Notes: generated from the sequence alone by a model not told the origin. Positions 35,189-56,170 are shown, counted from the stretch's first letter. The stretch: DNA of 64,000 bases from a virus (IMGVR_UViG_3300043409_001033:1-64000), one strand, 5' to 3'. Numbers and translations are program-made.

Positions 35189-35191
35189 CAC

Positions 35192-35243: not shown

Positions 35244-37562
35244 CTAAGAAATTGAGAAATTAAACATTTTGCAATAATAGTCTTTATTGGCAGTTGGAAT
35301 ATTTGGTAAAATTGTATTTCTATAAGCATAAGATGTAGTTTCCCAATCATCTGCCGTTACATGAAAATATCTCATAATACCATCAATAGAACATCTTGCA
35401 ATAAAATCTGTTGGTTCTACACCTTCTGGTCTAAATGCGGTTAATAAAACTTTATTTGATGACTTAGAAATTCTTACAGGTAATACATCTGTCATACTTG
35501 TATCCCAATTTATCGCATAAGTTTTTAACCAAGTAGTACCTCCGTCTAAAGAGTATTCTGTATTCCAGAATTGTGGAACCAGTTCTCTATAAGCAGAAAT
35601 TGCTCCGATTGAATCAAGCATTTGAATTGCACCCAACACGCCAGAGTAGGTGTCAATCCCACCTGCATTACTTGTTACTGCTCTGTCCCATAGTTCTAAA
35701 TCTACTCCGTTGATAAACCCAAGTAAAGTAAAAATAAAAGCGTATTTTCGCCCTATATTTTGATTGGAATGTTCAGTCAAAGAATCCGTAACCAACAACC
35801 CGTTGTAGTTTTTGGAAAATTCATTCCTACCTAATAAACTTCCTTTATCAGCTAATAGTTTAGGCATGAACAGGTTTCTTCTATTGTTCAATTTATATCT
35901 ACAATACCAAGCTTGCCATTCCATATTGGTTCCACATAAAGCAGTTGGATTTAATACTGTCCTTTCGGAGTATGTTCCAAATTTATTTACGTCTATGTAA
36001 TTACCAGAGTTATCTAAAGGGTAATGACTTCCTTGTGGGGCAAGCATTTCAAAATAAAAACTCTGTTCGGTTGAAGGCATTAAGTTATCATAATCTAATA
36101 AACTTTCGTTATTAATAGATTTACTTAATAATGTTGTTCTGGTTTCTACCTTCCAGTCTGTATTTAGTTTACTGAGTGCTGTTGAATTATAATTACCGTC
36201 ATTATCTGGGTAATTGTATGTTTTTTTGGCTCCTGTTGCTAAGTCTTCTGTATATCCGAACTCTTGGAATGGTGCCGAATATAGCGATACAAAATAACCT
36301 CTTGTTTTTCTTGCACCAGCAATTAAAAATACTCTATGTTTTTCTGAACCGTTTTCGTACCCTGTTTCTATGTCAGACATGACTATACATCTCTGAGATT
36401 TGTTGTTTATATTATCTTGACCTCCTAATAAGTTAGACTGTCCTATCTCGGTTCCAGTGTCATATAATTGTTCAAGTGTTTTAGGTGTCCACGGGTCAGT
36501 TGAGTCTGTTGCGTTGTATTGATTGTGACATCTATTGAAATACGGTATTGCGGATGTGAAGGTAAAGTAACCGTCATCTTTGTAATCTATACCATTTCTA
36601 AGTGGGTCAGGGTTTACTTGTCCACCATATACCAATCCAGCCAATCCAAGTTCCCATGCTTTTCTATTATAGGTTGTGAAAGAATTATGAGGAACATCCC
36701 AGTATACAGCCCAAATAGGTCGAGTATAACCAGTTGAATCTACATAAGTTCTAAGAGGAGTAGTTCCGAAATGTGTGAGATTTAATAAACTTCCAGTAGT
36801 TTGTGCTAAAGTTTTTGTAATGTTTGTAGCACTTGAAGCGTAGAAGTTTGTAGATGAATTAATGGTAGTTGTACTTGTTGTAGTACTTCCATTAATAGTT
36901 GTACTTGTTGTTGGATAAGCAACACACAATACATCTAACATAATCCAATCTAACGATGGGGGACAAACAGCAATAGAAGTTCCCGTTGGTAAAGAATTTA
37001 AAATCTTAGATGGGTCTAAATTATTTTGAAATTCTAATAAACAAACATCATCAGTAACATTATTAGATGAACATTTGAAATAATAAGTATTACCAACTAA
37101 ATAACCACCAGCATTTGATGTAGGTTGAATGTGAATATATTTTTCAAGTAACCCATTTGTATTGATGGTTGTACTACTTGTGGTTGAAGTAGTAGATGTC
37201 GTGGTAGTAGGTGTAGAATAATCTAAAACAGTATATGTTGTCGTAAACTCACAAGTAGTACCATTTGAATAAATTTTTATAGAAATATCATCTCCAATAT
37301 TAGGAATAGAAGCAAATGGTATGATTGCATAAATATATGAACCAACTCCAGATTGAGCTTGTGGAGAAGGACTTTCATAAAGAATCTCATTAGATTCATT
37401 CTTGATAGTAATCGTATATGGACTAAGACCACTAACCGTACTTTCGGGGATAATCCCAATTTGTAAACCAGTACTTACAATAATTTGAGTTATTGTATTT
37501 GGACTAAGAGTAGGGTCAGTTGCTTGTGTCCGTATATGTAAATTACCGCAATTTAAAGGCAT
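35244..37562 (-). CDS. large putative virion appendage protein with Thr-rich linkers and a ~510-aa C-terminal globular domain
   Basis: Tracts TPTTTTSTTSTTSSTT and PTTSTTINGSTTTSTTT; Cys module shared with 49635..51587; variant late motif (ATACTTATAA) at 37570-37579. Confidence 0.6.
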   Translation of the reverse strand: MPLNCGNLHIRTQATDPTLSPNTITQIIVSTGLQIGIIPESTVSGLSPYTITIKNESNEILYESPSPQAQSGVGSYIYAIIPFASIPNIGDDISIKIYSNGTTCEFTTTYTVLDYSTPTTTTSTTSTTSSTTINTNGLLEKYIHIQPTSNAGGYLVGNTYYFKCSSNNVTDDVCLLEFQNNLDPSKILNSLPTGTSIAVCPPSLDWIMLDVLCVAYPTTSTTINGSTTTSTTTINSSTNFYASSATNITKTLAQTTGSLLNLTHFGTTPLRTYVDSTGYTRPIWAVYWDVPHNSFTTYNRKAWELGLAGLVYGGQVNPDPLRNGIDYKDDGYFTFTSAIPYFNRCHNQYNATDSTDPWTPKTLEQLYDTGTEIGQSNLLGGQDNINNKSQRCIVMSDIETGYENGSEKHRVFLIAGARKTRGYFVSLYSAPFQEFGYTEDLATGAKKTYNYPDNDGNYNSTALSKLNTDWKVETRTTLLSKSINNESLLDYDNLMPSTEQSFYFEMLAPQGSHYPLDNSGNYIDVNKFGTYSERTVLNPTALCGTNMEWQAWYCRYKLNNRRNLFMPKLLADKGSLLGRNEFSKNYNGLLVTDSLTEHSNQNIGRKYAFIFTLLGFINGVDLELWDRAVTSNAGGIDTYSGVLGAIQMLDSIGAISAYRELVPQFWNTEYSLDGGTTWLKTYAINWDTSMTDVLPVRISKSSNKVLLTAFRPEGVEPTDFIARCSIDGIMRYFHVTADDWETTSYAYRNTILPNIPTANKDYYCKMFNFSIS

Positions 37563-41177: not shown

Positions 41178-43154
41178 TTAGCAATTCCAAGCTCTTCTCG
41201 ACCAATAATTAGCTTTAGTTCTATCTTTTCCACCACCTTTAATTCCTTTTGAGCGTGAACAGTATGATTTCTTTCTATCGGGATTATTTTTCTTTATATT
41301 ATAATCTTTTGAACCAAAATTTACTTTAACCACTCTTCCATCTTTACCTTTGACATAAACTTTAAACTTTTTAACATCTCCTCTCATTGGTTTGTTTAGT
41401 GGAACTTTTTTACCTTTGTATTCTGCTTCGGATATTAATTGTCCATTTTGTTGAATACCTTTTAACCAGTCTACTGTTTTATCAAAATCACTATCTGGAA
41501 CATCGTATTCTTCGCAATCACATTCGTTTAATGATGCGTTTGATTTGTCAAATGAACTCATGTATTCTTTTATAGCGTTTAATGCTTGATTTGGTAAATT
41601 TAGATGAGACAACTTAATTCCAAACATATTTGTTATGTTAAAATTATCCGCTGTCCAAATGCTATATTTATTGGAATAAAACCTTATATTGAGTTTACTG
41701 AAATCGAATAGTTTTGTTATTATGCTTATAGCATCTTTTATTTCATTGTCTTGTAGTTCGGCATCTTCGTCATATAACATTGCATTATATATTCTAACGA
41801 ATAATTGAGAGAATCTGTCACCTTCATCTGATAACTCTTCAAAATGTTCTATTTCATCGTCAGTGTATTTTTCAACAGGTTGTTTGTCAATTATTATTAT
41901 ATATTTCTTATTTAAAGATACGGATGCGTCGTACATTTTAGATGAACTTGGAGTAGATACGCACCATTTACTGTTTGCTCCATATTTACAAGATGCTTTG
42001 TGACTCAATGGTGATACGATTGTATACCGTGAATCTCTATAAATATTTACTCTTTCAGATGACTTGACACTACCTTCGTCTAATTTATATTCTTTACTAT
42101 TTTCGCAATCACATTCCATTAACGGTCTGTCTACATTATATGGTTCAATATATACTACTTCTCCATTTGATTTAGAGTATTTGAAAATATCACTTTTAAA
42201 AGTAATTGGTTCTTTTAATCTTTTAACATATTTTTTACCCATGCCTTTTTTTACATAGGCAATTGTAGCATGAGGTTGATATGATGGATATTTATCACTA
42301 TTTTCAAAATTTTTCTTAAAATAATTATGTAGTTTATGTAAAACGGGGGATTCTACATTAAATTTAACTACATCAAACTTATCATTTTCAAATAAATCAA
42401 TCTTAGTAAACGTAACTTCAATTGGATTTTTTAATTTTTGTAAAAGTTGTTCGATTTTATCTACATCGACATTTTCACTAAAACCATATAAAACAGTTAC
42501 ATGAGGTTCATCTTCTTTTCCATAAGAAGAATCATTTTCCTCAGTATATAAATCTTCATCATCTATTTGAGATAAAACATAATTCCATTTTGGAATATCT
42601 AATTGTAACATTAAACAACCAAATTCATGTACTTCTTTCTTTGGTTCATTAGGGTCTATTCCAGTATTTGTCAATAACTCTTTATACATGGTTTTTATCT
42701 CTTCTTCTAATTTTTTATTAATTTCATCTAAATTAGGAATAGAAATATCTCCCGATAAAGTAGGAACAGATTTTTTTGTTGAAATGTATGGTGTCACAAG
42801 TATTTGAGGATTGATTTTTGAATAGTTTCTCATAATAATACCAGCCAAAGAATTTGCTTCATTTTCTATATCAGAACCAGTATCACCAGCGTTGTTATAT
42901 AATTCTTTTTTCTCTAATTGGAAAAAATGTACGATTTCATGGGCTAAACTTCTACAAATATCAGCTAATAATCTATCTTTGACATAAACTACTATTTCAA
43001 TATTTTGTGTATCAAAATGAGCTAAAGTAGAAGTTTGAGATTTATCTTTTGTTAAGATTATTTTTGGTAATCGTTCAACATTAATTTGTTTTATTGTAGA
43101 TAACTCATCAAAAACATATTTTATAAAATCATTAAGAATCTCGTTACAATTCAT
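41178..43154 (-). CDS. multidomain polyprotein: HExxH metallopeptidase-like + 2H phosphoesterase (Acb1/gp57B-like) + SCKYG..KWC domain + basic C-terminal domain
   Basis: AHEIVH (aa 71-76) with downstream ENEAN; PHVTV (217-221) and PHATI (294-298); ASCKYGANSKWC (387-398); KKFKVYVK...VNFG...ANYWS (595-652). Confidence 0.8.
   Translation of the reverse strand: MNCNEILNDFIKYVFDELSTIKQINVERLPKIILTKDKSQTSTLAHFDTQNIEIVVYVKDRLLADICRSLAHEIVHFFQLEKKELYNNAGDTGSDIENEANSLAGIIMRNYSKINPQILVTPYISTKKSVPTLSGDISIPNLDEINKKLEEEIKTMYKELLTNTGIDPNEPKKEVHEFGCLMLQLDIPKWNYVLSQIDDEDLYTEENDSSYGKEDEPHVTVLYGFSENVDVDKIEQLLQKLKNPIEVTFTKIDLFENDKFDVVKFNVESPVLHKLHNYFKKNFENSDKYPSYQPHATIAYVKKGMGKKYVKRLKEPITFKSDIFKYSKSNGEVVYIEPYNVDRPLMECDCENSKEYKLDEGSVKSSERVNIYRDSRYTIVSPLSHKASCKYGANSKWCVSTPSSSKMYDASVSLNKKYIIIIDKQPVEKYTDDEIEHFEELSDEGDRFSQLFVRIYNAMLYDEDAELQDNEIKDAISIITKLFDFSKLNIRFYSNKYSIWTADNFNITNMFGIKLSHLNLPNQALNAIKEYMSSFDKSNASLNECDCEEYDVPDSDFDKTVDWLKGIQQNGQLISEAEYKGKKVPLNKPMRGDVKKFKVYVKGKDGRVVKVNFGSKDYNIKKNNPDRKKSYCSRSKGIKGGGKDRTKANYWSRRAWNC
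41511..42116. repeat. perfect 15-bp direct repeat TTCGCAATCACATTC (encodes ECDCE) flanking one in-frame module
   Basis: Copies at 41511-41525 and 42102-42116, 591 nt (197 codons) apart. Confidence 0.9.
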
Positions 43155-45494: not shown

Positions 45495-45897
45495 AATTTT
45501 TAGATTCGTTATCTATATAATTTTTCATTTCTAACAATTTTTTATACACATCGTTTGAATATAAATCACTTGCTATCCTATCAACAACTTCTTCAATCTT
45601 AGGATTATCAATCAAGTCATCTTCATCGGGGTTTAACCCAAACAAATTAAATAGTTTTCTTCTAAAATATTCAATATCTTTTTCACAATTGATTACAGAT
45701 GAATCTTCTAAATTTATTATTTGAACAAGAGATTCGTCTAAAGCATCACACGTTGCAGAATCCGTTATTACAGTGTATTTTTTATACTTCATTGGAATAT
45801 AACGAGATGATGTTTCAATCATTAATTTGGTCTCATTGTCTTCTAATGAAACATATTTTTCAATTGCTTTTTGGTAATCATTATCAGAAACTTTCAT
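45481..45897 (-). CDS. hypothetical protein
   Basis: 138-aa ORF overlapping both neighbours. Confidence 0.65.
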   Translation of the reverse strand: MKVSDNDYQKAIEKYVSLEDNETKLMIETSSRYIPMKYKKYTVITDSATCDALDESLVQIINLEDSSVINCEKDIEYFRRKLFNLFGLNPDEDDLIDNPKIEEVVDRIASDLYSNDVYKKLLEMKNYIDNESKNYGRL

Positions 45898-46351
45898 AAT
45901 TTTTTATTTTACTTGGATAATATCTACCCAAAATGTTATAATTATAATATTTATCTACATTTTCAATGACTCTTTCTTCCATTTGACATCTTAACTCTAA
46001 ATAAGATAAAGTTTGTTTATCTGTTACGGCATATAAGATTTCTCTTTTGAAATTTCCTTTACCCAAAAGTTTAATATCTTCTTTTAGGGTTTCGGAACTT
46101 CCCCAATATTCTTTCCATTTAGATTCGGTTACTACTTTCTTTTTTGTAGGCTTCTTTCCTCTTTTTGGTGGAAGATTTATAAGTTCTTTTTTGGTTAGTT
46201 TTTTATTAACGGTCGAAGTTAATAATTTTTTTCCAATATATTGTTTATTATTTGTTAAATTTGTTATTCTATAAATAAATCCAATATGTTTTGATAAATC
46301 TATTTTTTCGGAATTAATCCAATCGTTGTTTTCCATAATTTTACATATCAA
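45884..46351 (-). CDS. GIY-YIG nuclease-family protein
   Basis: GFIYRITNLTNNKQYIGKK, YWGSS, FKREIL and YYNYNI; the true start may be ATG 46336. Confidence 0.85.
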   Translation of the reverse strand: MICKIMENNDWINSEKIDLSKHIGFIYRITNLTNNKQYIGKKLLTSTVNKKLTKKELINLPPKRGKKPTKKKVVTESKWKEYWGSSETLKEDIKLLGKGNFKREILYAVTDKQTLSYLELRCQMEERVIENVDKYYNYNILGRYYPSKIKNYESF

Positions 46352-46649
46352 ATCTTACTTCAAAGATTGTATCGGTGGTTTTTGATAAAGGGATTGGTTG
46401 ATTTGATTTAGCAATTGCTACTAATTCTTTATTATTATTGTATAGTCCTATTGTTGAAACGTAAGGTTGAAAAGATTCTTCATTAACAAAATCTTTTACT
46501 ATTCCATCTACTGAATTAGGGTTTACTAATAAAGATTTATTTGTAGAGTATAAAAATTCTCTTTCCTTTGCTTTACAACGAACTATTGTTTCAAATACAG
46601 TATGTGAGTTTTTAAACTCAATGCTAAAATTACCAGTGTTAGTTATCAT
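46341..46649 (-). CDS. detached C-terminal baseplate / tail-collar-like domain
   Basis: PYVSTIGLYNNNKELVAIAK...VRFDM is paralogous to the C-terminus of 55157..56170 (TYVTTLGVYTDKMELVGVAK...VKFSW). Confidence 0.75.
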   Translation of the reverse strand: MITNTGNFSIEFKNSHTVFETIVRCKAKEREFLYSTNKSLLVNPNSVDGIVKDFVNEESFQPYVSTIGLYNNNKELVAIAKSNQPIPLSKTTDTIFEVRFDM

Positions 46650-47589
46650 ATCCTAATTTTTTACCAGTTTTTAAAATTTCTTGAACATAGAATTTGGTAT
46701 TAGAATTTTTATCAATTGTGTTTATATCATATTTGTATGGAAAATCATTTCTAAAAGCATCTTTAAAAAATACATTTTTCATTTGTGGTGTTATTCCAGC
46801 ATTATGATATATTTTATATTTATCAACATCGTTTATTCCACAAGCCCAAGAAAATTCTAAATCTTGATGCAATCTTGTATCGAATCCATGTTTCCATGCT
46901 AAATATTGAACTGCTATCATATCCGCTACCCAATATTGAAACTCGTGATAATTTTCTTTTGGTTGATTTGAACAAATAGCCCATTGAGATTTGTAATATT
47001 CAGTTCTATCTTTTAATTTGAATATTTGTTCACTTACTTTTTCTACTTCATTCCAAAATTGATAGTTTGTTCCGTATAAAAAATATTGACAACCTCCTGT
47101 ATATTGCTTATTCCTTCTTACAACTAATGGAGAAACGCCTGTTATTTCGCAAATATCTAATAAAACATCTGTTCCTTTTAATATGACATAATCATAATTC
47201 AAATAAGACCTTGTATCACTAACAAACCAATAGTCACTTTGGTTCATTTGTTCAAAATTTGGTAATCCTTTATAAGTAAAACAAATATCACTATCGTGAT
47301 AAAACATTTTCTCATCTTCTAAATGAGGATTATTTTGAATAAATTTTTTGATGATATGGGGTCTAATCGTAGGTTGATAACTTACATCTAAACGAGTATC
47401 TTCAATTAAAATAATATTTGATTTAAGTTGATTTTTTAATGTTAATAAATCATTACTTGGTATTCCTTTATATCCAAATAAAGCATAAACATTTGATAAA
47501 TCAACACCATTTAATTCAAAATTTGTATGTTGAACTTGTATTTCCCAAATGAATCTTTTATCATCGGGTTGGGCAGATAAATAAATCAT
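46639..47589 (-). CDS. GT-A fold glycosyltransferase, resembling peptide O-glycosyltransferases (GT95/GT96-like)
   Basis: YQPTIRPHIIKKF, FYHDSDICF (DxD), GGCQY, WVADM and IYHNAG. Confidence 0.7.
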   Translation of the reverse strand: MIYLSAQPDDKRFIWEIQVQHTNFELNGVDLSNVYALFGYKGIPSNDLLTLKNQLKSNIILIEDTRLDVSYQPTIRPHIIKKFIQNNPHLEDEKMFYHDSDICFTYKGLPNFEQMNQSDYWFVSDTRSYLNYDYVILKGTDVLLDICEITGVSPLVVRRNKQYTGGCQYFLYGTNYQFWNEVEKVSEQIFKLKDRTEYYKSQWAICSNQPKENYHEFQYWVADMIAVQYLAWKHGFDTRLHQDLEFSWACGINDVDKYKIYHNAGITPQMKNVFFKDAFRNDFPYKYDINTIDKNSNTKFYVQEILKTGKKLGYDN

Positions 47590-48419
47590 ATTCTATAATT
47601 CTTCCAGTAAGTATGTTCTTTATTATAACTATCTGAAAATGAATCATAGTGATTTGTAAAATTTCTTCCATGTTTGATGTGGATAGATTGTTGTTTGTCA
47701 TAAACAACCTTTACACCAAAACTCGGTTCGACAGAATTATATTCTCCTTGTAAATATTTTAACAAAATAGCACTAAAGTATTCAACAGCAAAATCAAATT
47801 TCATCGTCATTTGATGTAATGGAATCGTAGATTGTTTTAAATTTGAATATCCAAATTCATTTAATCCACCATAATTCATATTACAAATAATATTTTCATT
47901 AAAATCTTCATATTCAAAATGTTCGCTTGTATATAAAACATCATGTTCTAAAAAAGATACATATTCATACCCTTTATTATATTTTTTAGCAAGTAATAAA
48001 CATTGAAGAATTTGTGAAACTATCGTAAAATGAGATGAATTGTTTTTATTGATTGAACTTAAATTATAAAATTTATCATTATTTATCTTTTCCCAAGCAC
48101 AAGTAATAATGTCTATTTTAGAAGTTAATTTCTCTAATTCAAATAATACCTTTGATAAAATATCGGGTCTTATTTGATTATTTGTATAAAATATACCTAA
48201 TCTATTACTTGTTGGAAATTTATTAAAATAATCCACTAAGAAAGTATCCCATTCCTTTATGATAATTGTTGAATTAACACATAGATATTTTCTATTGTTT
48301 GGTTCGGGGTCGGAAAATAAATTATTACTAACTACAAAATCTTCTTTTTGTGATTGGACAATATTAGTAACATCAATTTCATTGGTAATTCCTCTATAAA
48401 CTGCTTTAGTTATGAGCAT
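47586..48419 (-). CDS. glycosyltransferase (GT-A/GT2-like) with an N-terminal SUEL/DUF3395-like lectin-type domain
   Basis: N-terminal ITKAVY...DVTNIV...NNLFSDPEPNNRKYL; YVSFLEHDVLY (ExD) and IHIKHGRNFT; ATGA-coupled to the downstream GT. Confidence 0.65.
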   Translation of the reverse strand: MLITKAVYRGITNEIDVTNIVQSQKEDFVVSNNLFSDPEPNNRKYLCVNSTIIIKEWDTFLVDYFNKFPTSNRLGIFYTNNQIRPDILSKVLFELEKLTSKIDIITCAWEKINNDKFYNLSSINKNNSSHFTIVSQILQCLLLAKKYNKGYEYVSFLEHDVLYTSEHFEYEDFNENIICNMNYGGLNEFGYSNLKQSTIPLHQMTMKFDFAVEYFSAILLKYLQGEYNSVEPSFGVKVVYDKQQSIHIKHGRNFTNHYDSFSDSYNKEHTYWKNYRI

Positions 48420-49642
48420 GGATTATTATTGATAAATGTTAAATTATCATAAGTTTTTGGAAAGTAATCATTTATACAAATAAATGAAACTATATCATTG
48501 GGATTTTTAGATATTGTAAATGTTGAATCAGTATTATCTTTTGGAATAACTGTTTGATAATTTACAATTTGTGTAGAATTTGATTCAAAATAAGTAATTG
48601 TGTAGTAACCAGAAATATTTACATCAACTGGTGCTGAATAACGTTTACCAGATTTTAATAAAGAAGCTCTAATATCAAACGTATTTCCAGATTCATCGTC
48701 TAATTGCGTAACAACAATTTTTACTTGTGAAGAACTTGTATCAACAGTGCATTGTGTAACAGCAACCGTTACATCGGCAAAGGAATCTTCATTTTGATTA
48801 AATGCTCTTACGGTAATAAATTCTCCCCCAACATAATTAGTTGCTACGCCAGAATTAGTAGGTAAAGTAAACTCTGTTTCGTTTGGTTTTAATGTATAAT
48901 CAGGTGTATCAAAGTTATTACTACAAACAAAATTTTGATTATAGCAATATCTAAATATGGTTGCATTAGAAATATTAAATACTCTTATTTTAGCATCTGT
49001 TTTCCCACAAGTATTTGGTATATATTGAACTTCAAAACTTGGGTTTGGACATGATAAAACAGGAGAAGTATATGTAGCAGTTATAGCATGATTAGTAGAA
49101 TCTCTTGCCGTAAATACATAAGAACCTTCTTTTATATCAAGTTCAAAAAATGAATTTGGTTCAACGTTATCATAATCTCTTACAATTTCATTAGTGATAG
49201 AGTCTTTTATTTGTAACTCTATTTTAGAAGAATTATTTCCTCCAAAACTAACTCGTATTCTACTAAATATAATACCATTTACCTTGATACATGACTTTAC
49301 TACAACCGAAATAGATAGATTTCCTATTGTAGTTGTAGAAGTTGTAGTTCCTTGTGTAGTTGATGTATATGGTAATGTAGTTGGTGGAACGTATAGTTTA
49401 GTTGTTCTTGAAGTATCAGGAATTATAAATTGTGTTGTTGCTACATTTATTAATGTGTATTCTTTAACAGTTCCGCAATTTAATCTCGTAACTTCAATAT
49501 TGTATATAGGAGAATATTCTTCAAATGAAATAGTAAACGGAAAGGAAACATTTTCATAAATAGTTTTACCTAAATATGAAATGTTATAATTTCCGCTATT
49601 GTTTACCGAATTATTAGAATATGTTAATGTAAAATTATACAA
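48410..49642 (-). CDS. beta-rich putative virion appendage protein with a Thr-rich linker
   Basis: PPTTLPYTSTTQGTTTSTTT; Ig/SprB-like segment (GSYVFTARDS); paired cysteines. Confidence 0.6.
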   Translation of the reverse strand: MYNFTLTYSNNSVNNSGNYNISYLGKTIYENVSFPFTISFEEYSPIYNIEVTRLNCGTVKEYTLINVATTQFIIPDTSRTTKLYVPPTTLPYTSTTQGTTTSTTTIGNLSISVVVKSCIKVNGIIFSRIRVSFGGNNSSKIELQIKDSITNEIVRDYDNVEPNSFFELDIKEGSYVFTARDSTNHAITATYTSPVLSCPNPSFEVQYIPNTCGKTDAKIRVFNISNATIFRYCYNQNFVCSNNFDTPDYTLKPNETEFTLPTNSGVATNYVGGEFITVRAFNQNEDSFADVTVAVTQCTVDTSSSQVKIVVTQLDDESGNTFDIRASLLKSGKRYSAPVDVNISGYYTITYFESNSTQIVNYQTVIPKDNTDSTFTISKNPNDIVSFICINDYFPKTYDNLTFINNNPCS

Positions 49643-51587
49643 GATTTTGAATAGTTATTTTTCTCGAAACTTGAACAGAACCATCGCAGTTAGTAACTGT
49701 TAAATAAATATATGGTGTTGGAAATTCGGAGTTATTCCATGTAACATTAGCACTGTTATCTGTTTCTGCACTATTTAATGTTCCACCAACTACTTCCCAC
49801 AAATAGGAAGTTACGGGACTTCCGTTATATGAACCATTTAAGCTATACTCATAAGCAACATCAGAATATACAACAAATGTTCCACTAATTGCCACATTTG
49901 ATAAAGGTATACATGGTGCAATCGTTGTTGTAGACGTTGTAGTCGTACTTGTGGTTGAGGTACTTGTAGATGTAGTAGTTGTTGTGCTTGGATTACAATT
50001 ATTTCTATTATCCAACATGATTTGATACAATTTGTTTCTACCTACATCTTTAATGTAAACTTGATAAACTTGTTGTTGATAGTTTGTTCCAATTTTATTT
50101 AAAGTAATATCAAAACTTGTTCCAGTTACATTTGTAAATGAACCATTATCCAAAGAATATTGATAATTACCAGAACCATTATAAGCGTCAAACGTCCATC
50201 TAAAAGTTGTGTCTGTACAAGTCATATTGGGAACTGATACATAAAAGCTATCACTATAACTTATTACATTACAAGAAGCATTTTGAGATGCTCCTATTAT
50301 TGCTGGTAGTGTTGAATTGGTTATTGCTGTAATATTTCCTGTTACAGAATCTAATGAAAATAATCTTGGGGTAGGTAAAGTCGCTTGAAAATATATTAAA
50401 GAATTATATACATATAAACTTCTTAGGTTGTAATAACCACTTAAACCGCTTAAACTATATTTTCTCAAAATTAGATTTGAACCATCGGCTTTCATTAACC
50501 ATATTTGAGGTTCATTTCCAATATGAGGGTCATAAATCAATGCTAAAAAACAATTCATTGATTGTACGTATGCTAATTCTTCTAATGAACAATATTGAAA
50601 AGTATTTGAATTTGGATATGAATAAGATATTCTTGATATAACAGAATTAAACTCATAACCACCCGAAACGGGTGTATATTTTCCAATAGAATATTCACCT
50701 GCATAAAAGTTACCAGAGGTATCGTGACATTGACCTCTTGCTATTAAATTAGCTTCTTCGGTAGGGTCAGTTGTTATGGATTGGATACCATAGGAACCAT
50801 CTGTTAAATCTAAAGTTTGTAAAACATATTGACTACCACTTTGGATAGCGGAATATAATTTATTACTATATAAAGATATATCAAGACTAATCCCCCAGTT
50901 TGAATAAATAGTGGAATATGTATTATCAACAGGATTGTAGTAATAAACATTTTGATTGTTATTACCAAAAACTCCGCATGGATTATAAGTTGGAGTTGTA
51001 GTTGTGCTACTTGTTGTTAAAGTAGTTGAAGTACTTGTAGTCGTACTTGTGGTTGAAGTAGTAGAACCTCCAGAAGTCGTGGTTGTTAAACATGGTATAT
51101 TTATATTATTTATTTCAGAAATACAACTTTGGTCATTGTAATCTCTTAATTGAATTTTATAATTTGCACACGATAATTTAAAACTAAAATTATTTGAACT
51201 AATAGGCGTAGTCCAATCTCTAACAACAGTAGTTCCCGATAAGATTTTAATTTGATATAATCTATAAAAAGAACTTTGAATCAAATCTACTAAAATATAT
51301 CCTTTTTGTTCATTATAATCATAAGGAAAACTTTCATTATTGACAAAAGTAACAGATGAAAATCCAATATCACATGGATTAGCGGTTGTAGTAGAAGTCG
51401 TACTTGTAGTCGTTTGCTCAGAACAATCTATAATAGTAGAACCACTTGGCAAAGAATTATACGTGATTCTGTTTAAATCAGAACGCATAAAATTAAAGCA
51501 GTCTATACCAGTCATAGTGTTATCATTACAACGGTAAAACAACGTCTCAGTTCCTTTTTGTACTTTTATAAATTTATGCTTATTCAT
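49635..51587 (-). CDS. putative virion appendage/adhesin with three mucin-like Thr tracts, propeller-like, SprB-like and PKD-like modules
   Basis: Three T/S tracts of 11 to ~33 aa; GSGNYQYSLDNG..YQVYIKD (SprB-like); YLWEVVGG..VTW..LTVTNCDG (PKD-like). Confidence 0.65.
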   Translation of the reverse strand: MNKHKFIKVQKGTETLFYRCNDNTMTGIDCFNFMRSDLNRITYNSLPSGSTIIDCSEQTTTSTTSTTTANPCDIGFSSVTFVNNESFPYDYNEQKGYILVDLIQSSFYRLYQIKILSGTTVVRDWTTPISSNNFSFKLSCANYKIQLRDYNDQSCISEINNINIPCLTTTTSGGSTTSTTSTTTSTSTTLTTSSTTTTPTYNPCGVFGNNNQNVYYYNPVDNTYSTIYSNWGISLDISLYSNKLYSAIQSGSQYVLQTLDLTDGSYGIQSITTDPTEEANLIARGQCHDTSGNFYAGEYSIGKYTPVSGGYEFNSVISRISYSYPNSNTFQYCSLEELAYVQSMNCFLALIYDPHIGNEPQIWLMKADGSNLILRKYSLSGLSGYYNLRSLYVYNSLIYFQATLPTPRLFSLDSVTGNITAITNSTLPAIIGASQNASCNVISYSDSFYVSVPNMTCTDTTFRWTFDAYNGSGNYQYSLDNGSFTNVTGTSFDITLNKIGTNYQQQVYQVYIKDVGRNKLYQIMLDNRNNCNPSTTTTTSTSTSTTSTTTTSTTTIAPCIPLSNVAISGTFVVYSDVAYEYSLNGSYNGSPVTSYLWEVVGGTLNSAETDNSANVTWNNSEFPTPYIYLTVTNCDGSVQVSRKITIQNLV

Positions 51588-51625
51588 AACAAATTAACAA
51601 TAAATAATTTTAAATAGTTCCATGA

Positions 51626-52231
51626 TTATAAAATATCCCACCCAGTTCCAAAACTTTGTATTGTATATGATGATTTTGGAATACTCGTAGATAAATAATT
51701 GTAATCATCAATTAATTGAGAACCGCTTGGAATAATATTTACAGAATTTAATGTATTATCTACTTTTTTTATTATGAAAGTTCTTCCTTGAACTAAATTT
51801 GCATCCATTAATGAAATATTAATAGAACTTCCAGAAGCATTTACTCTAATAGTACCATCGAATTGATTTAATGAATAATTAGAAATAACGGTTTTTGGAA
51901 CAGATTCTATTATACTACCAGAAATATTTATAGTAGAACCAGAATTATTTATATAAGATAAATAAACAAATGAACCAGAAAGACTTATACTACTAATCGA
52001 ATTTACAGAATCCTGTAAAATATTATATTCAACATCATCTAACACCTTAATTGGGTTAGAACCACTTCGTTTAAAGTAAAGTGAACCACTACCAATAGCC
52101 ATCAAACCATCCCTTGTTAAATAAGAGTTGGAATCATTTACTGTTAAATAATATGGAATAGCAAAATTAGAAATACTTGAATAGTTATCTCCAACTAAAT
52201 CTCCATATATTTTTTGTGAACCACTTGCCAT
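51626..52231 (-). CDS. tail fibre-like protein rich in SGS
   Basis: Eight SGS in 201 aa; C-terminal GRTFIIKKVD...GSQLID...GTGWDIL fibre-type domain. Confidence 0.65.
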   Translation of the reverse strand: MASGSQKIYGDLVGDNYSSISNFAIPYYLTVNDSNSYLTRDGLMAIGSGSLYFKRSGSNPIKVLDDVEYNILQDSVNSISSISLSGSFVYLSYINNSGSTINISGSIIESVPKTVISNYSLNQFDGTIRVNASGSSINISLMDANLVQGRTFIIKKVDNTLNSVNIIPSGSQLIDDYNYLSTSIPKSSYTIQSFGTGWDIL

Positions 52232-52561
52232 TTAGAATATAATTAGTTTAAATGATATTGAACTTGTAGCATTTACTGTAACACTGTTTGCAGTTCTATC
52301 TATTTTGTTTGGTATAAATATTTCATTTCCACTACCATCTTCACAACGAATACCGTTTATGTATGGTAATAAATGTTCATCTTGTAAAACAGTAACAGTG
52401 CTTACATTTGAACAAGTTTTTATATATCGTTGTTTAAATTCAAAAACAGCAGAAATCAATTCTTTTACTAATGTATTTAATTCACCCCCTCTTGTTAAGG
52501 GATTTCTATTATCGCTTAGTGTATTATCTGTTAATGTTTCTATTTGACTTCTTGATAACAT
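52232..52561 (-). CDS. hypothetical virion protein
   Basis: 109 aa with its own late motif and a beta-rich C-terminus. Confidence 0.65.
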   Translation of the reverse strand: MLSRSQIETLTDNTLSDNRNPLTRGGELNTLVKELISAVFEFKQRYIKTCSNVSTVTVLQDEHLLPYINGIRCEDGSGNEIFIPNKIDRTANSVTVNATSSISFKLIIF

Positions 52562-52573
52562 TATTATTTTTAT

Positions 52574-52583
52574 TTATAAATAT
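52574..52583 (-). promoter_or_regulatory. late-promoter-like motif ATATTTATAA (includes the upstream gene's TAA stop)
   Basis: Exact 10-mer 12 nt upstream of ATG 52561. Confidence 0.6.
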
Positions 52584-55153
52584 GATGTTACACAATTATT
52601 ACCACTTATCAACCATGTTGGTTCTTGTTGTCCATTCAAACAGGCTATTCTTACTTTAGTTGAAATTTTACAAGATTTATTAGATTTTAATCTTACCCAA
52701 ACTGTATATAAACCATTTGGTAAATAGTTTGATTGATTATTTTCCGTGTAATACAAATCTACATCTCCGTTGAATGAATATTCTAAACCAGAAGAATCTT
52801 TAGTAAAAGGATTTAAAGCACTTACAATTATAATTCCTCTATTATCATTACTAACACCGCAGACAAAGTTTGTATATGGATATTCTCTAATAATAGGATT
52901 GCAATTAAAAATAGTTGTAGTAGAAGAAATATTACTTAATGTCAAAGATAATGTTTTATTATCATCTTCATTATTATAACCATTTCCAGCAATAGAATTA
53001 GGGTCATATTGGTCTACTTCCCATACTTGAGATTTTATTTGTTTAACATCACCGACATTACCATTAAATTTACCTTTAAATCTTATAACAAAACTATCTC
53101 CGACAATTAATTCATCTTTACTAAACAAATAATAACCATTTTCAAAAGTATAATCATAAGAAGATATACTTGATGTATTGATAATAAAGTTATTATCATA
53201 TTCTAACTTAATAACTAAATTAGTAGCATTACTATTTCCTTTATTTTGAATAACAATTGTAAAATCTAAATCGGTATTAATTAAAGGAGTAGTTGTACTT
53301 GAATAAAATGTTAATTCTAAATCAGATATTTCAATCTCACTATTAATTGTTGTAGATGTAGAAGTACTCGATGGTAAAGTAGTAGTAAAATCGACCGATG
53401 CTAATTGATTGAATGTCAATTGACTACTTAAAGTTTTACAAAAATCCTTTGTTTGATATATTAAAGAACTATTTGTGTATGAATCATCAACAATAACCTC
53501 TAAATAATTAGAATTTATGTCACTAACAAATTTTACACCTCCATTAAATTGCCAATTAGGAAATTCTTTTAGATAAAAATTAGTGTTAGCAAAAATTATA
53601 TAATTATTTTTTGTATTGGTTGGTATTAATTCTAATTCAACTTGAGAATCTACGCAAGTTGGTTCTAAACAGTTACCATTAAATGTAATAGTCTTAGTTG
53701 TTGTTGGACAACAATCACTATAAATAGTAGCAATAACATCTCCTCTACAACCAAATAACATTATACTATCTTTATAGGTAGGAATACCGCTCATTTCGCC
53801 TGTAAATGCCCATTGAACCGTAGAAATATTACAATGATTGGAAACTACTTTATATTCATTATATATTTGGTTTATTTGACCTAAAGCGTTTAAATCAACA
53901 TAATCTTTTATTTTATTAAAAGAATATTCTCCTGTCATAGGGTTCATTTTAAAATGATACTCTACATAGGATTCATTTGTTGTTGATTTTACCTTTAAGT
54001 TAAAATTATAAGCATTTCTTAGGTATGTATATGGATTTGATAAAGATGTATCAATGATTACTCTACTTGCTAATTCACTTATGGTAAAATATGTTAATCC
54101 ACCATCTTTTGAAAATGAAATATTATAATTTTGGTCGGTATCAAAAATGTAACTATAATTATTTATACCATTGTTTCTTGTAGAAGTTTTTATTACATCG
54201 GTTAATGATACAAAAATGTTATTACTTGGCAATACTTCTACTTGGTTTGATTTTTTGATTATTTGAAAATCTGCTACTCTACTTAAACAATTATTATCTG
54301 ATAATGTTGGATTTGGTATAGTTAAATCAAAATCACAGTTTTCAATTACGTTTATTTCAATATCTGAAATATTAGAACATATTCCTAATGAATCTTTTAC
54401 TAAATATTGAGCAGTATATGTACCTAAAGAAGAATTTGTAAAAGTTATTGATGAATTATTATTTGTATAAGTAAACCCATCCGATAAATTTAATAGTTGT
54501 AGTGTAGAACTATCTAAAGTTTGGGAGCAATATGTAATAGCATCAGATAATAAATCTATTATCTTTGTTTCATTTTTTAGAAATGTATATTTTTTTGGGA
54601 AAACTGTTGGTTCAACTGGAAATAAGCAGAAATAATTTTGATTAGTTACTACAACTATGCCTTGTTGATAAAAAATATTACCTACAAGGTCATCGGAAAT
54701 AGTGTCTATTAGATTTCCGTTACCATCATCTTCAATATTGAATGAATCGGAATTTAATTTAAAGAAAGTTGGTTGTATTTCATTACCAAACATACTTTGG
54801 GGAATGTCTAATACACGAATAACACTTCCAATTTCGGTTGGAAAATCTTTAACTAAGTCTTGATTATGATTATATGAATGAAATGAGGATGAGTGAATAC
54901 TCGAACCCGAATATTGTTGATAAAAAAGTCTATTTACATTATCATAAATAGACCTTTGGTAATATCCATTCGTTTTCGGTTCAGTTGGTAGATAGAAATT
55001 TCCATCAAGCTTCTTTCCAGTATAAATTTTGACATCAGAATCACTACCACTTCCACACACATTTGGTAAGTTGTTGTAATTTAACTTATATTGTTTGTGT
55101 GCTTGATATGGTATTGTATTAACATCGTCAATATTGAGTCGTTTTAATGACAT
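52574..55153 (-). CDS. baseplate-anchored protein with Ig-like, DUF11-like and SprB-like extensions
   Basis: N-terminal DDGNGNL..VGNIFYQQGIVVVT; YTAQYLVKD; DUF11-like SDLEL..FTIVIQNKG.SNATNL..DQYDPNS..EDD; LEYSFNG..LPNGLYTVWVR. Confidence 0.7.
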   Translation of the reverse strand: MSLKRLNIDDVNTIPYQAHKQYKLNYNNLPNVCGSGSDSDVKIYTGKKLDGNFYLPTEPKTNGYYQRSIYDNVNRLFYQQYSGSSIHSSSFHSYNHNQDLVKDFPTEIGSVIRVLDIPQSMFGNEIQPTFFKLNSDSFNIEDDGNGNLIDTISDDLVGNIFYQQGIVVVTNQNYFCLFPVEPTVFPKKYTFLKNETKIIDLLSDAITYCSQTLDSSTLQLLNLSDGFTYTNNNSSITFTNSSLGTYTAQYLVKDSLGICSNISDIEINVIENCDFDLTIPNPTLSDNNCLSRVADFQIIKKSNQVEVLPSNNIFVSLTDVIKTSTRNNGINNYSYIFDTDQNYNISFSKDGGLTYFTISELASRVIIDTSLSNPYTYLRNAYNFNLKVKSTTNESYVEYHFKMNPMTGEYSFNKIKDYVDLNALGQINQIYNEYKVVSNHCNISTVQWAFTGEMSGIPTYKDSIMLFGCRGDVIATIYSDCCPTTTKTITFNGNCLEPTCVDSQVELELIPTNTKNNYIIFANTNFYLKEFPNWQFNGGVKFVSDINSNYLEVIVDDSYTNSSLIYQTKDFCKTLSSQLTFNQLASVDFTTTLPSSTSTSTTINSEIEISDLELTFYSSTTTPLINTDLDFTIVIQNKGNSNATNLVIKLEYDNNFIINTSSISSYDYTFENGYYLFSKDELIVGDSFVIRFKGKFNGNVGDVKQIKSQVWEVDQYDPNSIAGNGYNNEDDNKTLSLTLSNISSTTTIFNCNPIIREYPYTNFVCGVSNDNRGIIIVSALNPFTKDSSGLEYSFNGDVDLYYTENNQSNYLPNGLYTVWVRLKSNKSCKISTKVRIACLNGQQEPTWLISGNNCVTSYL

Positions 55154-55156: not shown

Positions 55157-56170
55157 TTACCAACTAAATTTTACTTTAATTATTTTATCTTCAATAAATG
55201 TCTTTTTGAGAGGTTTAGACAACTTAGCCACCCCAACTAATTCCATTTTATCGGTATATACTCCTAATGTAGTCACATAGGTAGTAGGATTATCTATGAT
55301 ACTTTGGTCAAATATGTTACCAGAACTATCTAAAATACTTGGATTAGTTGTAAAATTAAAATCAGCATTAGATAATCGACAAAAATAATACTTACTTGTA
55401 ACAGTTTCTTCCGAACGAACTTGAAAATATTGACCAGCAGAAATCATATTGAATAATTTTAACTCATTTCTTTGAGTAGCGTTAGTCGGAGTAGTAGTAA
55501 TATTCAATCCAATACCTTTATTTGCATAAGATAACGCTAATGCTTTTGGATTTAGTACAAATAATCCTAAATCAGGTAACACTATTCCATAAGTACCTTG
55601 AGTTGTATTGACAATAGATGAACCACTCGCTAATACGCCATTTGAACCAGAAATAATCGTATAATATCTTGTATTACCAATATAATTATTTACAATATCA
55701 ATCTTTGAATCATCTGTTAATGAAAGAATATTAGACCCAGACTTTAGTCTTAAATTAAATCCACCTTGTATTGATTCTCTATAACAATCTCTTGATAATG
55801 AAAGGACGAAAATTTCATCAGAAGAAATTCCACCAGTAGAGTTAAAATTAAATAAATCTGTTTCTGAGTTTAGAATATTTTGTCTGAATGATGAATATGA
55901 TATTTTTGTAAACTTAGTTCCGTCATAAGTTTGATAAGCAGAACCAGAAATATTACCCGAACCAGAAATATTAGCATAAGAAATGCTAAATTGTGGGGTT
56001 GCTAATGGATTTACCGAAATATTGTCTTTATACACATTTACATAAAATCCATTATCTATAACAGGAGTATAAAATGTAGATAAAATTTCAGTATCATTTG
56101 ACCAAGCAGGTTTAACTACTTTTTGAGAATCAAGTGTTGAGTCACTTGGTTGAAATTTAATATATGTCAT
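55157..56170 (-). CDS. baseplate / tail-collar structural protein
   Basis: QFSISY, YYFCR...FNFTTNPS and YVTTLGVY..ELVGVAKLSKP; five SGS. Confidence 0.7.
   Translation of the reverse strand: MTYIKFQPSDSTLDSQKVVKPAWSNDTEILSTFYTPVIDNGFYVNVYKDNISVNPLATPQFSISYANISGSGNISGSAYQTYDGTKFTKISYSSFRQNILNSETDLFNFNSTGGISSDEIFVLSLSRDCYRESIQGGFNLRLKSGSNILSLTDDSKIDIVNNYIGNTRYYTIISGSNGVLASGSSIVNTTQGTYGIVLPDLGLFVLNPKALALSYANKGIGLNITTTPTNATQRNELKLFNMISAGQYFQVRSEETVTSKYYFCRLSNADFNFTTNPSILDSSGNIFDQSIIDNPTTYVTTLGVYTDKMELVGVAKLSKPLKKTFIEDKIIKVKFSW

Follow-up and report, generated by a model that had tools for sequence, protein, structure and literature searches.

Why should a T4-like phage keep two predicted glycosyltransferase genes directly behind genes for proteins with long threonine- and serine-rich stretches? 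The question is raised by a gene cassette in a 64,000-nucleotide stretch of viral DNA (the window), whose source is an uncultured, T4-like phage with Flavobacteria as its probable host. The first-pass annotation had read this locus as a virion O-glycosylation system. The core of that reading, a module with the tracts as acceptors, is upheld computationally by gene position and co-variation; the resemblance to GT95 and GT96 enzymes that had been drawn into it stays below the Pfam threshold. We consider it likely, from these genome comparisons, that the late structural block of the phage includes a phage-encoded cytoplasmic protein O-glycosylation module, the acceptors of which would be the Thr/Ser tracts of neighbouring appendage-type proteins.

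The cassette and its tract proteins

The features needed for the argument are listed below, where GT1 is the gene at 46639-47589 and GT2 the gene at 47586-48419; "GT2-family" is reserved for the enzyme family type.

35244..37562, minus strand: 772-aa protein bearing a Thr/Ser linker at residues 115-132 and another at 226-238, 9 kb away and adjoining the terminase gene; possible further acceptor
46341..46649, minus strand: 102-aa ORF whose coding region overlaps the GT1 end; homologue of the gp164/gp165 C-terminal domain of Flavobacterium phage immuto
46639..47589, minus strand: GT1, predicted 316-aa soluble GT-A glycosyltransferase, glycogenin/GT8-like (phrog_4417), from its fold and invariant motifs
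47586..48212, minus strand: GT2 catalytic domain (residues 70-277), predicted GT-A of GT2-family type, from its fold and the invariant E158-H159-D160
48222..48419, minus strand: GT2 N-terminal domain (residues 1-66), a cysteine-free, shortened SUEL/rhamnose-binding-lectin-like module, from profile matches
48410..49642, minus strand: 410-aa protein directly upstream of GT2, 13.2% Thr, with a Thr-rich linker at residues 93-105 (nt 49328-49366); proposed acceptor
49635..51587, minus strand: 650-aa beads-on-a-string protein, 14% Thr and 12.9% Ser, with three Thr/Ser linkers; proposed main acceptor
51626..52231, minus strand: 201-aa Ser-rich protein (18.9% Ser) inside the cassette, without a family match in Pfam, NCBIfam or PHROG
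52232..52561, minus strand: 109-aa ORF, first gene of the packed run
52574..55153, minus strand: 859-aa protein with a Thr/Ser linker at residues 590-602 (nt 53348-53386); proposed baseplate-attached appendage and acceptor

The ORFs named in the first-pass annotation are all present where it had placed them, on the minus strand, and they form the overlapping chain that it had described: the 650-aa and 410-aa genes share 8 nt, the 410-aa gene and GT2 share 10 nt, and GT2 and GT1 share 4 nt. GT1 in turn overlaps the 102-aa ORF by 11 nt. The tightly packed run consists of the 109-aa, 201-aa, 650-aa and 410-aa genes followed by GT2 and GT1, with a TATAAATA motif at 52571-52578 (minus strand) just 5' of the 109-aa ORF; scans for sigma-70 promoters and terminators across the cassette gave results at chance level. 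A SegE-like homing endonuclease gene comes after the cassette, and a primase gene is found within a few kb of GT1 and GT2.

When a tract is defined as at least 10 T/S in 12 residues with at least 5 T, tracts occur in exactly four of the 59 window genes (those of the 772-aa, 410-aa, 650-aa and 859-aa proteins), as had been noticed earlier from the sequence alone; residue shuffling leads one to expect 0.03 such genes on average. The tract quoted at that time, TTTTSGGSTTSTTSTTTSTSTT, is located at residues 168-189 of the 650-aa protein, whose other linkers are at residues 56-68 and 532-555 (the three corresponding, in order of residues, to nt 51384-51422, 51021-51086 and 49923-49994). The linker of the 859-aa protein precedes a DUF11/CARDB-like Ig-type domain (DUF11 E 8.6e-7), and the N-terminal ~170 aa of this protein weakly resemble the N-terminus of immuto gp165, which belongs to the baseplate/fibre block (E 1e-4). 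Family scans of the four tract proteins returned no match to a known virion family, and for the 410-aa protein no family match of any kind in Pfam, NCBIfam or PHROG. From the synteny with the immuto fibre/spike slot, together with the N-terminal match at E 1e-4, we infer that the tract proteins of the window are virion parts.

Two predicted glycosyltransferases

The view that GT1 is a GT-A enzyme is borne out by its AF2 model (pLDDT 96.6), which aligns in VIA with glycogenin (6eql) at Z 15.0 and rmsd 3.0 over 205 residues, and further with the Skp1 alpha-GalT (Z 14.4), LgtC (13.6), and GlyE and UGGT (both 13.3). The nearest fold class is that of the GT8 enzymes, and the mechanism is probably a retaining one. 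The HDSD motif recorded earlier is H98-D99-S100-D101 and is conserved in the family, as are Y71, P77, W220 and H262, with D99, D101 and H262 being invariant. In the predicted structure D99-S-D101, which does not vary in 33 sequences, is found between strands 95-97 and 102-104, and H262, a candidate for the C-terminal His of the GT8 Mn2+ ligand set, is in a strand near the C-terminus. The protein begins with its first beta-strand (residues 2-8) and has no hydrophobic N-terminal helix; N-terminal hydrophobic or membrane segments were found in neither GT1 nor GT2.

GT1 is a member of phrog_4417 (E 1e-53), the function of which is not annotated, and has no Pfam match at E<=0.1 and no NCBIfam match; its profile, when compared with the sequences of solved structures, gave only spurious TAL-effector matches. 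PF01501 (Glyco_transf_8) had no match among 33 GT1 family members at E<=1, and GT1 was rejected as a sequence member of CAZy GT8 / Pfam PF01501, the threshold not being reached. Proteins 61% and 71% identical to GT1 are encoded on contigs of 176 kb and 69 kb, respectively, and a tblastn search of phage records detected homologues in 77 of them, none from Mycobacterium.

The GT-A assignment of GT2 likewise stands (AF2 pLDDT 90.4), with Z values of 12-14.5 to TarP, SpsA, RmlT and hyaluronan synthase for residues 70-277. In VIA the alignment with 6p61 has Z 14.5 and rmsd 2.6 over 161 residues, TarP scores 13.7, and RmlT and SpsA 13.3, although nucleotidyltransferases also fit at Z about 12.5; SpsA is the best Foldseek match. 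The best structural matches are enzymes of wall teichoic acid and polysaccharide, and the mechanism is probably inverting. The EHD motif corresponds to E158-H159-D160, which is invariant in 35 sequences and is placed where strand 153-158 ends; in GT1 and GT2 alike the acidic motif comes after beta-4. Pfam, PHROG and NCBIfam yielded no match for GT2, nor did 50,697 phage records.

The lectin-like character attributed to the N-terminus of GT2 was recovered with a family profile, A2, which matches the L-rhamnose-binding lectin 5h4s (E 2.2e-11) and CSL3 (2zx0, E 4.5e-6). Both matches are based on the motif sNdiFGDPxxGxxKYL, and the A2 consensus, sNdiFGDpkpGvvKYLev, in which the SUEL C-terminal motif (N..FGDPC.GT.KYL; Pfam PF02140) is recognisable, aligns with each of the three 5h4s domains and with the two CSL3 domains. 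N32, D37 and K44 of GT2 are invariant in the family and are aligned with N74, D79 and K86 of CSL3, which we take to be sugar-contacting residues. A full SUEL domain of ~95 residues is not matched: the GT2 module has ~66 residues, lacks the cysteines of the motif and has no Pfam match at E<=0.1.

Pairing of GT1 with Thr/Ser tracts

If the tracts are the substrates of GT1, the two might be expected to keep company elsewhere. A positional survey took GT1 as the anchor of 80 IMG/VR loci, which fall into 21 clusters at 70% identity. Tract genes are found at position -1 in 57 of 79 loci (14 of 21 after dereplication) and at position -2 in 17 of 72, whereas each of positions -8 to -3 and +2 to +8 has 0-4 of them. 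Several of the seeming exceptions have shorter T5-T7 runs, and a few loci (for example L032) are tract-free within 10 kb. In a replication with 80 metagenome loci a tract was found at position -1 in 23 of 72, with the short stand-alone form of GT1 only; tract neighbours are absent from the long forms (at least 440 aa), which are on large, probably cellular contigs.

Similar arrangements are seen in cultured phages. In small temperate siphophages the GT1 homologues are part of the tail module, with the major tail protein gene on one side and the tail chaperone genes on the other. In Enterococcus phage phiFL1A and Staphylococcus phage vB-SscS-F1 a major tail protein with a poly-Thr end is followed by the GT1 homologue, and in Clostridium phage phiCTP1 the gene before the homologue is that of gp18, which ends in poly-Thr and occupies the place of the major tail protein. 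The major tail protein of VPE25 also has a poly-Thr C-terminal end, and in Chryseobacterium phage MA9V-3 a poly-Thr gene is at position -1 of the GT1 homologue. Among 27 homologous major tail proteins of the Enterococcus type, GT1 is directly downstream of all 12 that have the poly-Thr tail and of none of the 15 that do not, and the joint trait requires four changes on the tree, with at least two of them forced by well-supported branches.

The close relatives of the window phage repeat this pattern. GT1 and tracts are both present in the window phage and in L166, its closest relative, where the 410-aa homologue is directly upstream of GT1, the 650-aa homologue is also tract-bearing, and the 772-aa homologue is directly upstream of the latter. 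GT1 and GT2 are both missing from Flavobacterium phage immuto, L280 and L281/282, and the syntenic cassette of these phages is tract-free. Among the relatives compared, none that keeps the Thr tracts without a glycosyltransferase was seen; tracts and GT1 were gained and lost together, both for the tail proteins and within this lineage, and the O-glycosylation idea therefore came through this comparison intact. The genome comparisons show a position-specific pairing of GT1 with poly-Thr tracts that has been repeatedly co-gained and co-lost across unrelated phages.

The cassette occupies the tail-fibre/tail-spike slot, which has conserved baseplate-region genes on one side and primase on the other. 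The 102-aa ORF (E 9e-16 to residues 248-357 of immuto gp165) has a 66% identical homologue after GT1 in L166, and in L280 its homologue is contained in a gene with an unsplit 575-aa form. Given its homology to the C-terminal domain of immuto gp164/gp165, this ORF marks the downstream edge of the cassette, which looks as though it had been inserted into, and had split, a gp165-like gene.

GT2 is the more loosely associated of the two. It is missing from 65 of the 80 GT1 loci and from L166, so that GT1 is mostly alone, and in 43 of 60 GT2 loci GT1 is one to four genes upstream of it. The window has the gene order GT2-GT1, and all other loci the opposite one. Where GT1 is lacking (L116, L085, L126), GT2 is fused to, or placed among, other glycosyltransferases. 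Two phage genomes, G007 (100% complete) and G004 (94%), have GT2 without GT1, and a strict dependence of GT2 on GT1 is therefore ruled out. An accessory enzyme located mostly after GT1 fits a role in glycan extension, and the proposal that GT1 primes and the lectin-fused GT2 extends agrees with this asymmetry of occurrence.

A proposed pathway and its rivals

Because GT1 comes and goes with the tracts across many unrelated phages, we think it probable that this phage adds sugars to proteins of its own particle. In the pathway that we propose, GT1, as a predicted soluble, metal-dependent GT-A enzyme, would start glycosylation on the Thr/Ser linkers of the 410-aa, 650-aa and 859-aa proteins, and possibly of the 772-aa protein as well; GT2 would recognise the first sugar and add a second, its lectin-like domain acting in analogy to the lectin of animal ppGalNAc-transferases that guides follow-up glycosylation of mucin repeats. 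Since the acceptors are in the tail-fibre/tail-spike slot of the baseplate region, the pathway would give tail appendages whose interdomain stalks are covered with sugar. Transfer onto Thr/Ser, the order of GT1 before GT2, and the identity and linkage of the sugars are what we infer for this pathway. The benefit might be protease resistance, stiffness, shielding or adhesion, with the stiffening and shielding roles being speculative.

The tract proteins might be glycosylated and yet not be components of the particle, serving instead as secreted or cell-surface adhesins or decoys during infection. That none of the four matches a known virion family would suit such a role, as would the DUF11/CARDB-type domains, which are common in bacterial surface proteins; we nevertheless think it unlikely, in view of the slot that the cassette occupies between baseplate-region genes and primase, the N-terminus that the 859-aa protein has in common with gp165 of that block, and the cultured Gram-positive phages in which it is the major tail protein that bears the tract. 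It is somewhat less probable that GT1 and GT2 act on a glycopolymer of the host envelope (LPS/O-antigen, capsule or a teichoic-acid-like polymer) for superinfection block or receptor remodelling, like prophage TarP, with the tracts as flexible linkers only. The nearest solved folds of GT2 do include TarP, TarS, RmlT, the WrtF fucosyltransferase and hyaluronan synthases, and some phages have GT2 in multi-GT clusters (GT9, GT4, TylF-like methyltransferase) reminiscent of polysaccharide clusters. Left unexplained, however, would be the placement of GT1 exactly one gene after a tract gene and its joint gain and loss with the poly-Thr tail of the tail tube (12/12 versus 0/15); both enzymes are without membrane segments, and their genes are in the structural block of a lytic-type T4-like phage and not in a lysogenic conversion module.

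The tract association would also have no explanation if the two enzymes glycosylated modified bases (hydroxymethyl-pyrimidine) of the phage DNA and so evaded restriction. The idea comes readily to mind, since phage glycosyltransferases are classically DNA-modifying, with T4-like phages as the textbook case, since the hypermodification of viral DNA involves diverse GT-A and GT-B enzymes, and since primase and homing endonuclease genes are a few kb away. We consider it very improbable: GT1 homologues occur inside the tail module of small temperate siphophages, and the related cultured phage immuto has 7-deazaguanine DNA-modification genes (queuosine-pathway, DpdA) instead. No ThyA-like hydroxymethylase or TET/JBP gene was found in the 74-kb record, but this is weak evidence because the record is only ~44% complete (and the TET control matched nowhere). 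Just as improbable, in our estimation, is that Thr-tract fibre genes and glycosyltransferase genes merely travel together in a mobile host-range cassette with no enzyme-substrate relation, as the inserted look of the cassette, the split gp165-like gene and the SegE-like endonuclease gene might suggest. GT1 is paired with tracts on carriers that are unrelated to one another, from tail tube C-termini and fibre linkers to proteins of jumbo phages, and in 21 GT1 clusters from very different phage types, and in the tail-protein case it is a short C-terminal tag, not a whole cassette, that changes with GT1.

Comparison with known glycosylation systems

The closest published case is the virion glycosylation of mycobacteriophages, which is cited in PMC12619734. 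The likeness is that a phage-encoded glycosyltransferase is genetically tied to a structural-protein acceptor, as GT1 is to the tracts by adjacency and by co-gain and co-loss. Phages Che8, Corndog and Myrna reportedly modify their own structural proteins with phage-encoded glycosyltransferases, and the glycans are reported to be C-terminal, on subunits of the capsid and the tail tube (Freeman et al. 2023, Cell Host Microbe). Such C-terminal glycans are what the poly-Thr-ended major tail proteins beside GT1 homologues would predict. The enzyme families are different, however, with no Mycobacterium among the 77 records that have GT1 homologues and GT2 unmatched in the phage collection; the hosts of GT1 phages are Bacteroidota and Firmicutes rather than Actinobacteria; and the acceptors proposed here are explicit poly-Thr/Ser tags and interdomain linkers. 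To our knowledge, mycobacteriophages are the only phages in which experiments have demonstrated self-glycosylation of the particle, and there it alters antibody recognition. We found no paper on the GT1 family or on the enzyme-tract pairing, and no glycan report for the phages considered here.

Should the pairing prove to be what it looks like, an enzyme family that is unannotated in Pfam, NCBIfam and PHROGs would be adding sugar to the tails or fibres of many phages, among them phages of Enterococcus, Staphylococcus, Lactobacillus and Clostridium that are used in the laboratory or relevant to therapy. This would bear on how phage immunogenicity, stability and adsorption are read, and would provide a small tag and its enzyme for O-glycosylating proteins in the bacterial cytoplasm. 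The window would add a variant with two enzymes, in which the second transferase is fused to a lectin-like domain. A broader generalization can be offered only tentatively: that tailed phages have a widespread mucin-type O-glycosylation system in which phrog_4417 enzymes start sugars on encoded poly-Thr tags, at tail tube C-termini in Enterococcus, Staphylococcus, Clostridium and Lactobacillus phages and in fibre linkers of T4-like and jumbo phages, and in which, in a subset, a SUEL-lectin/GT-A fusion (GT2) reads and extends the first sugar. If true, it would be the bacterial-virus counterpart of lectin-guided ppGalNAc-transferase action. The lectin domain of the animal GT27 GalNAc-transferases directs glycosylation near sugars that have already been added, and GT2 is like them in the fusion of a GT-A domain to a sugar-binding-type domain and in being beside dense Thr/Ser tracts. 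The relationship is one of analogy, not homology: the lectin-like part of GT2 is N-terminal, SUEL-type and cysteine-free in place of C-terminal and ricin-type, and its catalytic domain matches GT2-family enzymes, with no GT27 among the listed matches and EHD in place of DxH.

Among retaining GT8-type enzymes whose substrates are proteins or glycans bound to them, glycogenin, the Skp1 alpha-galactosyltransferase and GlyE are the best fold matches of GT1 (Z 13.3-15.0 over about 205-225 residues), and they are, as is predicted for GT1, soluble, cytoplasmic proteins with a DxD and a C-terminal His. GlyE belongs to the pneumococcal pathway for serine-rich-repeat proteins, in which it decorates an adhesin with Ser-rich repeats. 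GT1 shares only 7-13% sequence identity with these enzymes, however, and Glyco_transf_8 of Pfam is not matched.

The kinship with the plant and algal peptide O-glycosyltransferases GT95 HPAT and GT96 SERGT that had been suggested for GT1 was not recovered by the HPAT model (PF23452), which at E<=1 matches none of 33 family members and none of five homologues from cultured phages. The layout Y-x4-RP, DxD, W..M and YH is present and conserved in GT1, as in HPAT and SERGT1, but HPAT and SERGT are Golgi enzymes with a type II membrane anchor, whereas GT1 has no N-terminal anchor and its proposed acceptors are Thr/Ser and not hydroxyproline. A remote kinship of GT1 with HPAT is possible: one HPAT match, to a GT1 homologue in a 371-kb phage, has 16.4 bits against a cut-off of 23.9 (E 7.7e-4, model positions 7-112), and 10% of the members of a neighbouring ESM-Atlas cluster are annotated as HPAT.

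The cassette and its position in the genome

The linear 74-kb IMG/VR virus record whose first 64 kb make up the window has an estimated completeness of about 44%. The window has a GC content of about 27%, carries nearly all of its genes on the minus strand and encodes T4-type structural proteins, including a gp21-like prohead protease and the following:

14824-15309, gp19-like tail tube
15362-17065, tail sheath
24221-25816, gp23-like major capsid protein
31542-33353, gp20-like portal
33408-34997, large terminase

The nearest relative that we found among cultured phages, the Flavobacterium myovirus vB_FspM_immuto (immuto; 160 kb), has the same gene order as the window between the baseplate region and the primase. 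Within this shared order lies a variable slot, flanked and occupied in the window as follows:

45884-46351 (-), SegE-type GIY-YIG homing endonuclease
46341-46649 (-), 102-aa ORF
46639-47589 (-), GT1, putative glycosyltransferase, 316 aa
47586-48419 (-), GT2, putative glycosyltransferase with a lectin-like N-terminus
48410-49642, 410-aa tract protein
49635-51587, 650-aa tract protein
52232-52561 (-), 109-aa ORF
52574-55153, 859-aa tract protein
55157-56170, counterpart of immuto gp164
56170-56820, counterpart of immuto gp163 (55% identity)
56855-61786, counterpart of immuto gp161

The slot follows the gp161, gp163 and gp164 counterparts; in immuto it is occupied by genes annotated as tail fibre and tail spike, and in the window by the tract genes and both glycosyltransferase genes; beyond it, both genomes have a SegE-like endonuclease and then the primase. 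We infer that the tract proteins of the window are parts of the virion. Immuto gp165 is similar at its N-terminus to the initial ~170 residues of the 859-aa protein (E 1e-4) and in its C-terminal domain to the 102-aa ORF (E 9e-16), so that a gp165-like gene appears to have been split by the ~8-8.5-kb cassette of tract and glycosyltransferase genes (compared coordinates: window 46341-46649 plus 52574-55153; locus L249, 22327-23400; L280, 11765-13489). The split recurs in the relative L166, and L280 has an unsplit 575-aa form. The endonuclease (PF19835, E 7e-28) lies just 3' of the cassette; its family is labelled "NAD synthetase" in PHROG and in immuto, which looks like an annotation error.

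The four ORFs that the first-pass annotation placed in one chain (GT1, GT2 and the 410- and 650-aa genes) are all present, with head-to-tail overlaps of 8, 10 and 4 nt, and GT1 shares 11 nt with the ORF that follows it. Under a fixed rule (12 residues with at least 10 Thr/Ser, at least five of them Thr), exactly four of the 59 called window genes have tracts, namely the three in the slot and the 772-aa gene at 35244-37562, whereas shuffling of residues within genes yields 0.03 tract genes on average. The Thr content of these four genes (9-14%) is the highest among the long genes of the window. Since the tracts are flanked by blocks of ordinary sequence, they look like interdomain linkers.

Predicted properties of GT1 and GT2

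Neither protein matched a family in Pfam or NCBIfam, and neither has a predicted membrane segment. GT1 is a member of phrog_4417, a family of unknown function. Its AlphaFold model, built with homologue alignments as input, is confident (pLDDT 96.6) and predicts a GT-A fold nearest to retaining GT8-type enzymes; D99-x-D101 and H262 are invariant throughout the family alignment. One bacterial-type homologue has a second glycosyltransferase domain fused to it.

Fold matches of the GT1 model
Glycogenin: Z 15.0
Skp1 alpha-galactosyltransferase: Z 14.4
LgtC: Z 13.6
GlyE, UGGT: Z 13.3

The model of GT2 (pLDDT 90.4) has a GT-A fold at residues 70-277 whose nearest neighbours are the GT2-family enzymes 6p61, TarP, RmlT, SpsA and hyaluronan synthases (Z 12.3-14.5), nearly equalled by nucleotidyltransferases such as IspD (Z about 12.5). 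We favour a transferase over a nucleotidyltransferase because E158-H159-D160, after the fourth strand, is invariant and the first strand is GT2-like. The lectin-like N-terminus noted in the first-pass annotation is borne out at the profile level, with residues 1-66 matching SUEL/rhamnose-binding lectins (5h4s, E 2e-11; CSL3, E 5e-6), a match carried by their signature motif N..FGDP..G..KYL. This module is short and has none of the lectin cysteines; its invariant N32, D37 and K44 align with N74, D79 and K86 of CSL3, which we take to be sugar contacts.

GT2 is an accessory partner of GT1: it is missing from 65 of 80 GT1 loci and also from L166. Among 80 of 199 viral loci anchored on GT2, GT1 lies one to four genes upstream in 43 of the 60 with enough flank (11/21 after dereplication), usually with the tract gene first, then GT1, then GT2; the window is unusual in that GT2 precedes GT1. 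Two phage genomes, G007 (100% complete) and G004 (94%), have GT2 and no GT1; in such a context (L085, L126) GT2 lies amid genes of the families GT8, GT2, GT4 and GT9 and one that resembles sugar methyltransferases. These observations fit, although they do not prove, a role for GT2 in elaborating a glycan begun by another transferase. At L116, a 552-aa protein (9194-10849) has a Pfam GT2-family domain fused ahead of a GT2-type domain; the gene is directly 3' of three poly-Thr genes, with no GT1 at the locus. The initiating enzyme may be interchangeable.

Association of GT1 with Thr/Ser tracts in other genomes

The association between GT1 and the tracts was assessed in 80 of 454 IMG/VR loci anchored on GT1 (21 clusters at 70% identity); in several of the seeming exceptions the -1 gene bears shorter T5-T7 runs.

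Loci with a tract gene, by position relative to GT1
-8 to -4, each position: 0 or 1
-3: 4/72
-2: 17/72
-1: 57/79 (14/21 dereplicated)
+1: 10/79
+2 to +8, each position: 0 or 1

The pattern was repeated in a second, independent sample of 80 metagenome loci (-1 tract in 23/72), the signal being limited to the short stand-alone form of GT1 (~300-320 aa); forms of at least 440 aa, on large, probably cellular contigs, had no tract neighbours. Long homologues of 440-590 aa (loci L176, L181, L184, L197, L199, L210, L222 and L240; proteins P0152, P0153 and P0181) occur on contigs of very large size and in genomes of Pedobacter, Sphingobacterium and Chryseobacterium; they have an extra C-terminal region with no Pfam match, and likewise no Thr-tract neighbours.

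Among deposited phage genomes, 77 encode a homologue of GT1 (Lactobacillus, Enterococcus, Staphylococcus, Lactococcus, Clostridium, Chryseobacterium and other hosts), in all inspected cases within the morphogenesis module.

Cultured phages with a GT1 homologue and Thr/Ser tracts
Enterococcus phiFL1A: directly 3' of the gene for the major tail protein, whose C-terminus is a 21-residue Thr/Ser run
Clostridium phiCTP1: after gp18, which has two Thr runs at its end
Staphylococcus vB-SscS-F1: after a tail protein with nine terminal Thr, plus a poly-Thr protein
Enterococcus VPE25: part of the head-tail module; major tail protein with a poly-Thr end
Chryseobacterium MA9V-3: long Thr/Ser tracts in both preceding genes

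Joint gain and loss, and alternative functions

Joint gain and loss of tract and enzyme was seen among 27 homologues of the phiFL1A major tail protein, 64-100% identical, on Enterococcus-type siphophage and prophage contigs (L252-L278). All 12 with a poly-Thr tail have a GT1 homologue immediately downstream, and none of the 15 tail-less ones, which stop shortly past the conserved GETTGDY motif, has GT1 within about 4 kb. When this joint trait is mapped on a tree of the tail-protein cores, four changes are needed, and well-supported branches force at least two of them. The pairing is experimentally tractable in cultured phages such as phiFL1A.

Relatives of the window's phage agree. L166, the closest with flanking sequence (GT1 54% identical), has in order a 650-aa homologue with tracts, a 410-aa homologue, GT1, the 102-aa ORF and the primase. 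Immuto, L280 and L281/282 have neither GT1, GT2 nor a tract in the syntenic cassette, and immuto has no tract across 100 of its 160 kb. Because relatives without the transferases thus have no cassette tracts, the first-pass proposal that GT1 primes Ser/Thr on virion proteins and GT2 extends the glycan is not refuted.

Glycosylation of phage DNA by these enzymes is unlikely, given that small temperate phages have GT1 within their tail modules and that the coupling to tracts would be left unexplained; that no hydroxymethylase or TET gene was seen counts for little, because the 74-kb record is incomplete. Modification of the host envelope draws some support from the fold neighbours of GT2, but it cannot account for the joint gain and loss of GT1 and a tag on a tail protein. 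Mere hitch-hiking of transferase and tract genes in one cassette is contradicted by the tract carriers, which are mutually unrelated.

Relation to known systems

To our knowledge, glycosylation of phage virions has been shown experimentally only in mycobacteriophages. The mycobacteriophage system is described by Freeman et al. 2023 (as cited in PMC12619734), and its enzymes have no detectable kinship to GT1 or GT2. In its working GT1 is probably most similar to protein-directed transferases of the GT8 type, yet by sequence it falls outside GT8. The link to the plant families GT95 and GT96 in the first-pass annotation fell below threshold and is unsupported; the observations of that annotation were confirmed, and its core interpretation is supported. 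The combination of lectin-like and GT-A domains beside mucin-like tracts resembles animal ppGalNAc-transferases by analogy, not by homology. A full-text literature search found no paper on phage poly-Thr tags or the GT1 enzyme family. We infer every functional step of the module. It would be a case of phage self-glycosylation, a known kind of system, and what the window would contribute is a form that has two enzymes and the help of a lectin-like domain.

Other features of the window and of immuto

The octamer TATAAATA, which resembles T4 late promoters, is present 40 times in the window, compared with 25 expected. Minus-strand sites at 15325, 20064, 33362, 37567, 52571 and 56833 are very near start codons, a few bases 5' of several structural genes; among the genes just downstream are the one for the 772-aa tract protein and the 109-aa gene, the latter being the first of the run that closes with GT2 and GT1. 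Immuto (L250, record positions 18607-36971) encodes a full 7-deazaguanine DNA modification set (QueC, QueD, QueE, QueF, FolE and DpdA). Two other window proteins have recognizable domains:

21219-24134 (-), 971 aa, between the capsid gene and an AAA ATPase gene: C2H2 zinc finger, DUF7487 and a C-terminal methyltransferase-like domain
41178-43154 (-), 658 aa: 2H-phosphoesterase/Acb1-like (anti-CBASS) domain at residues ~205-324 (Pfam PF13563, E 3e-11; PF23474, E 4.5e-9)
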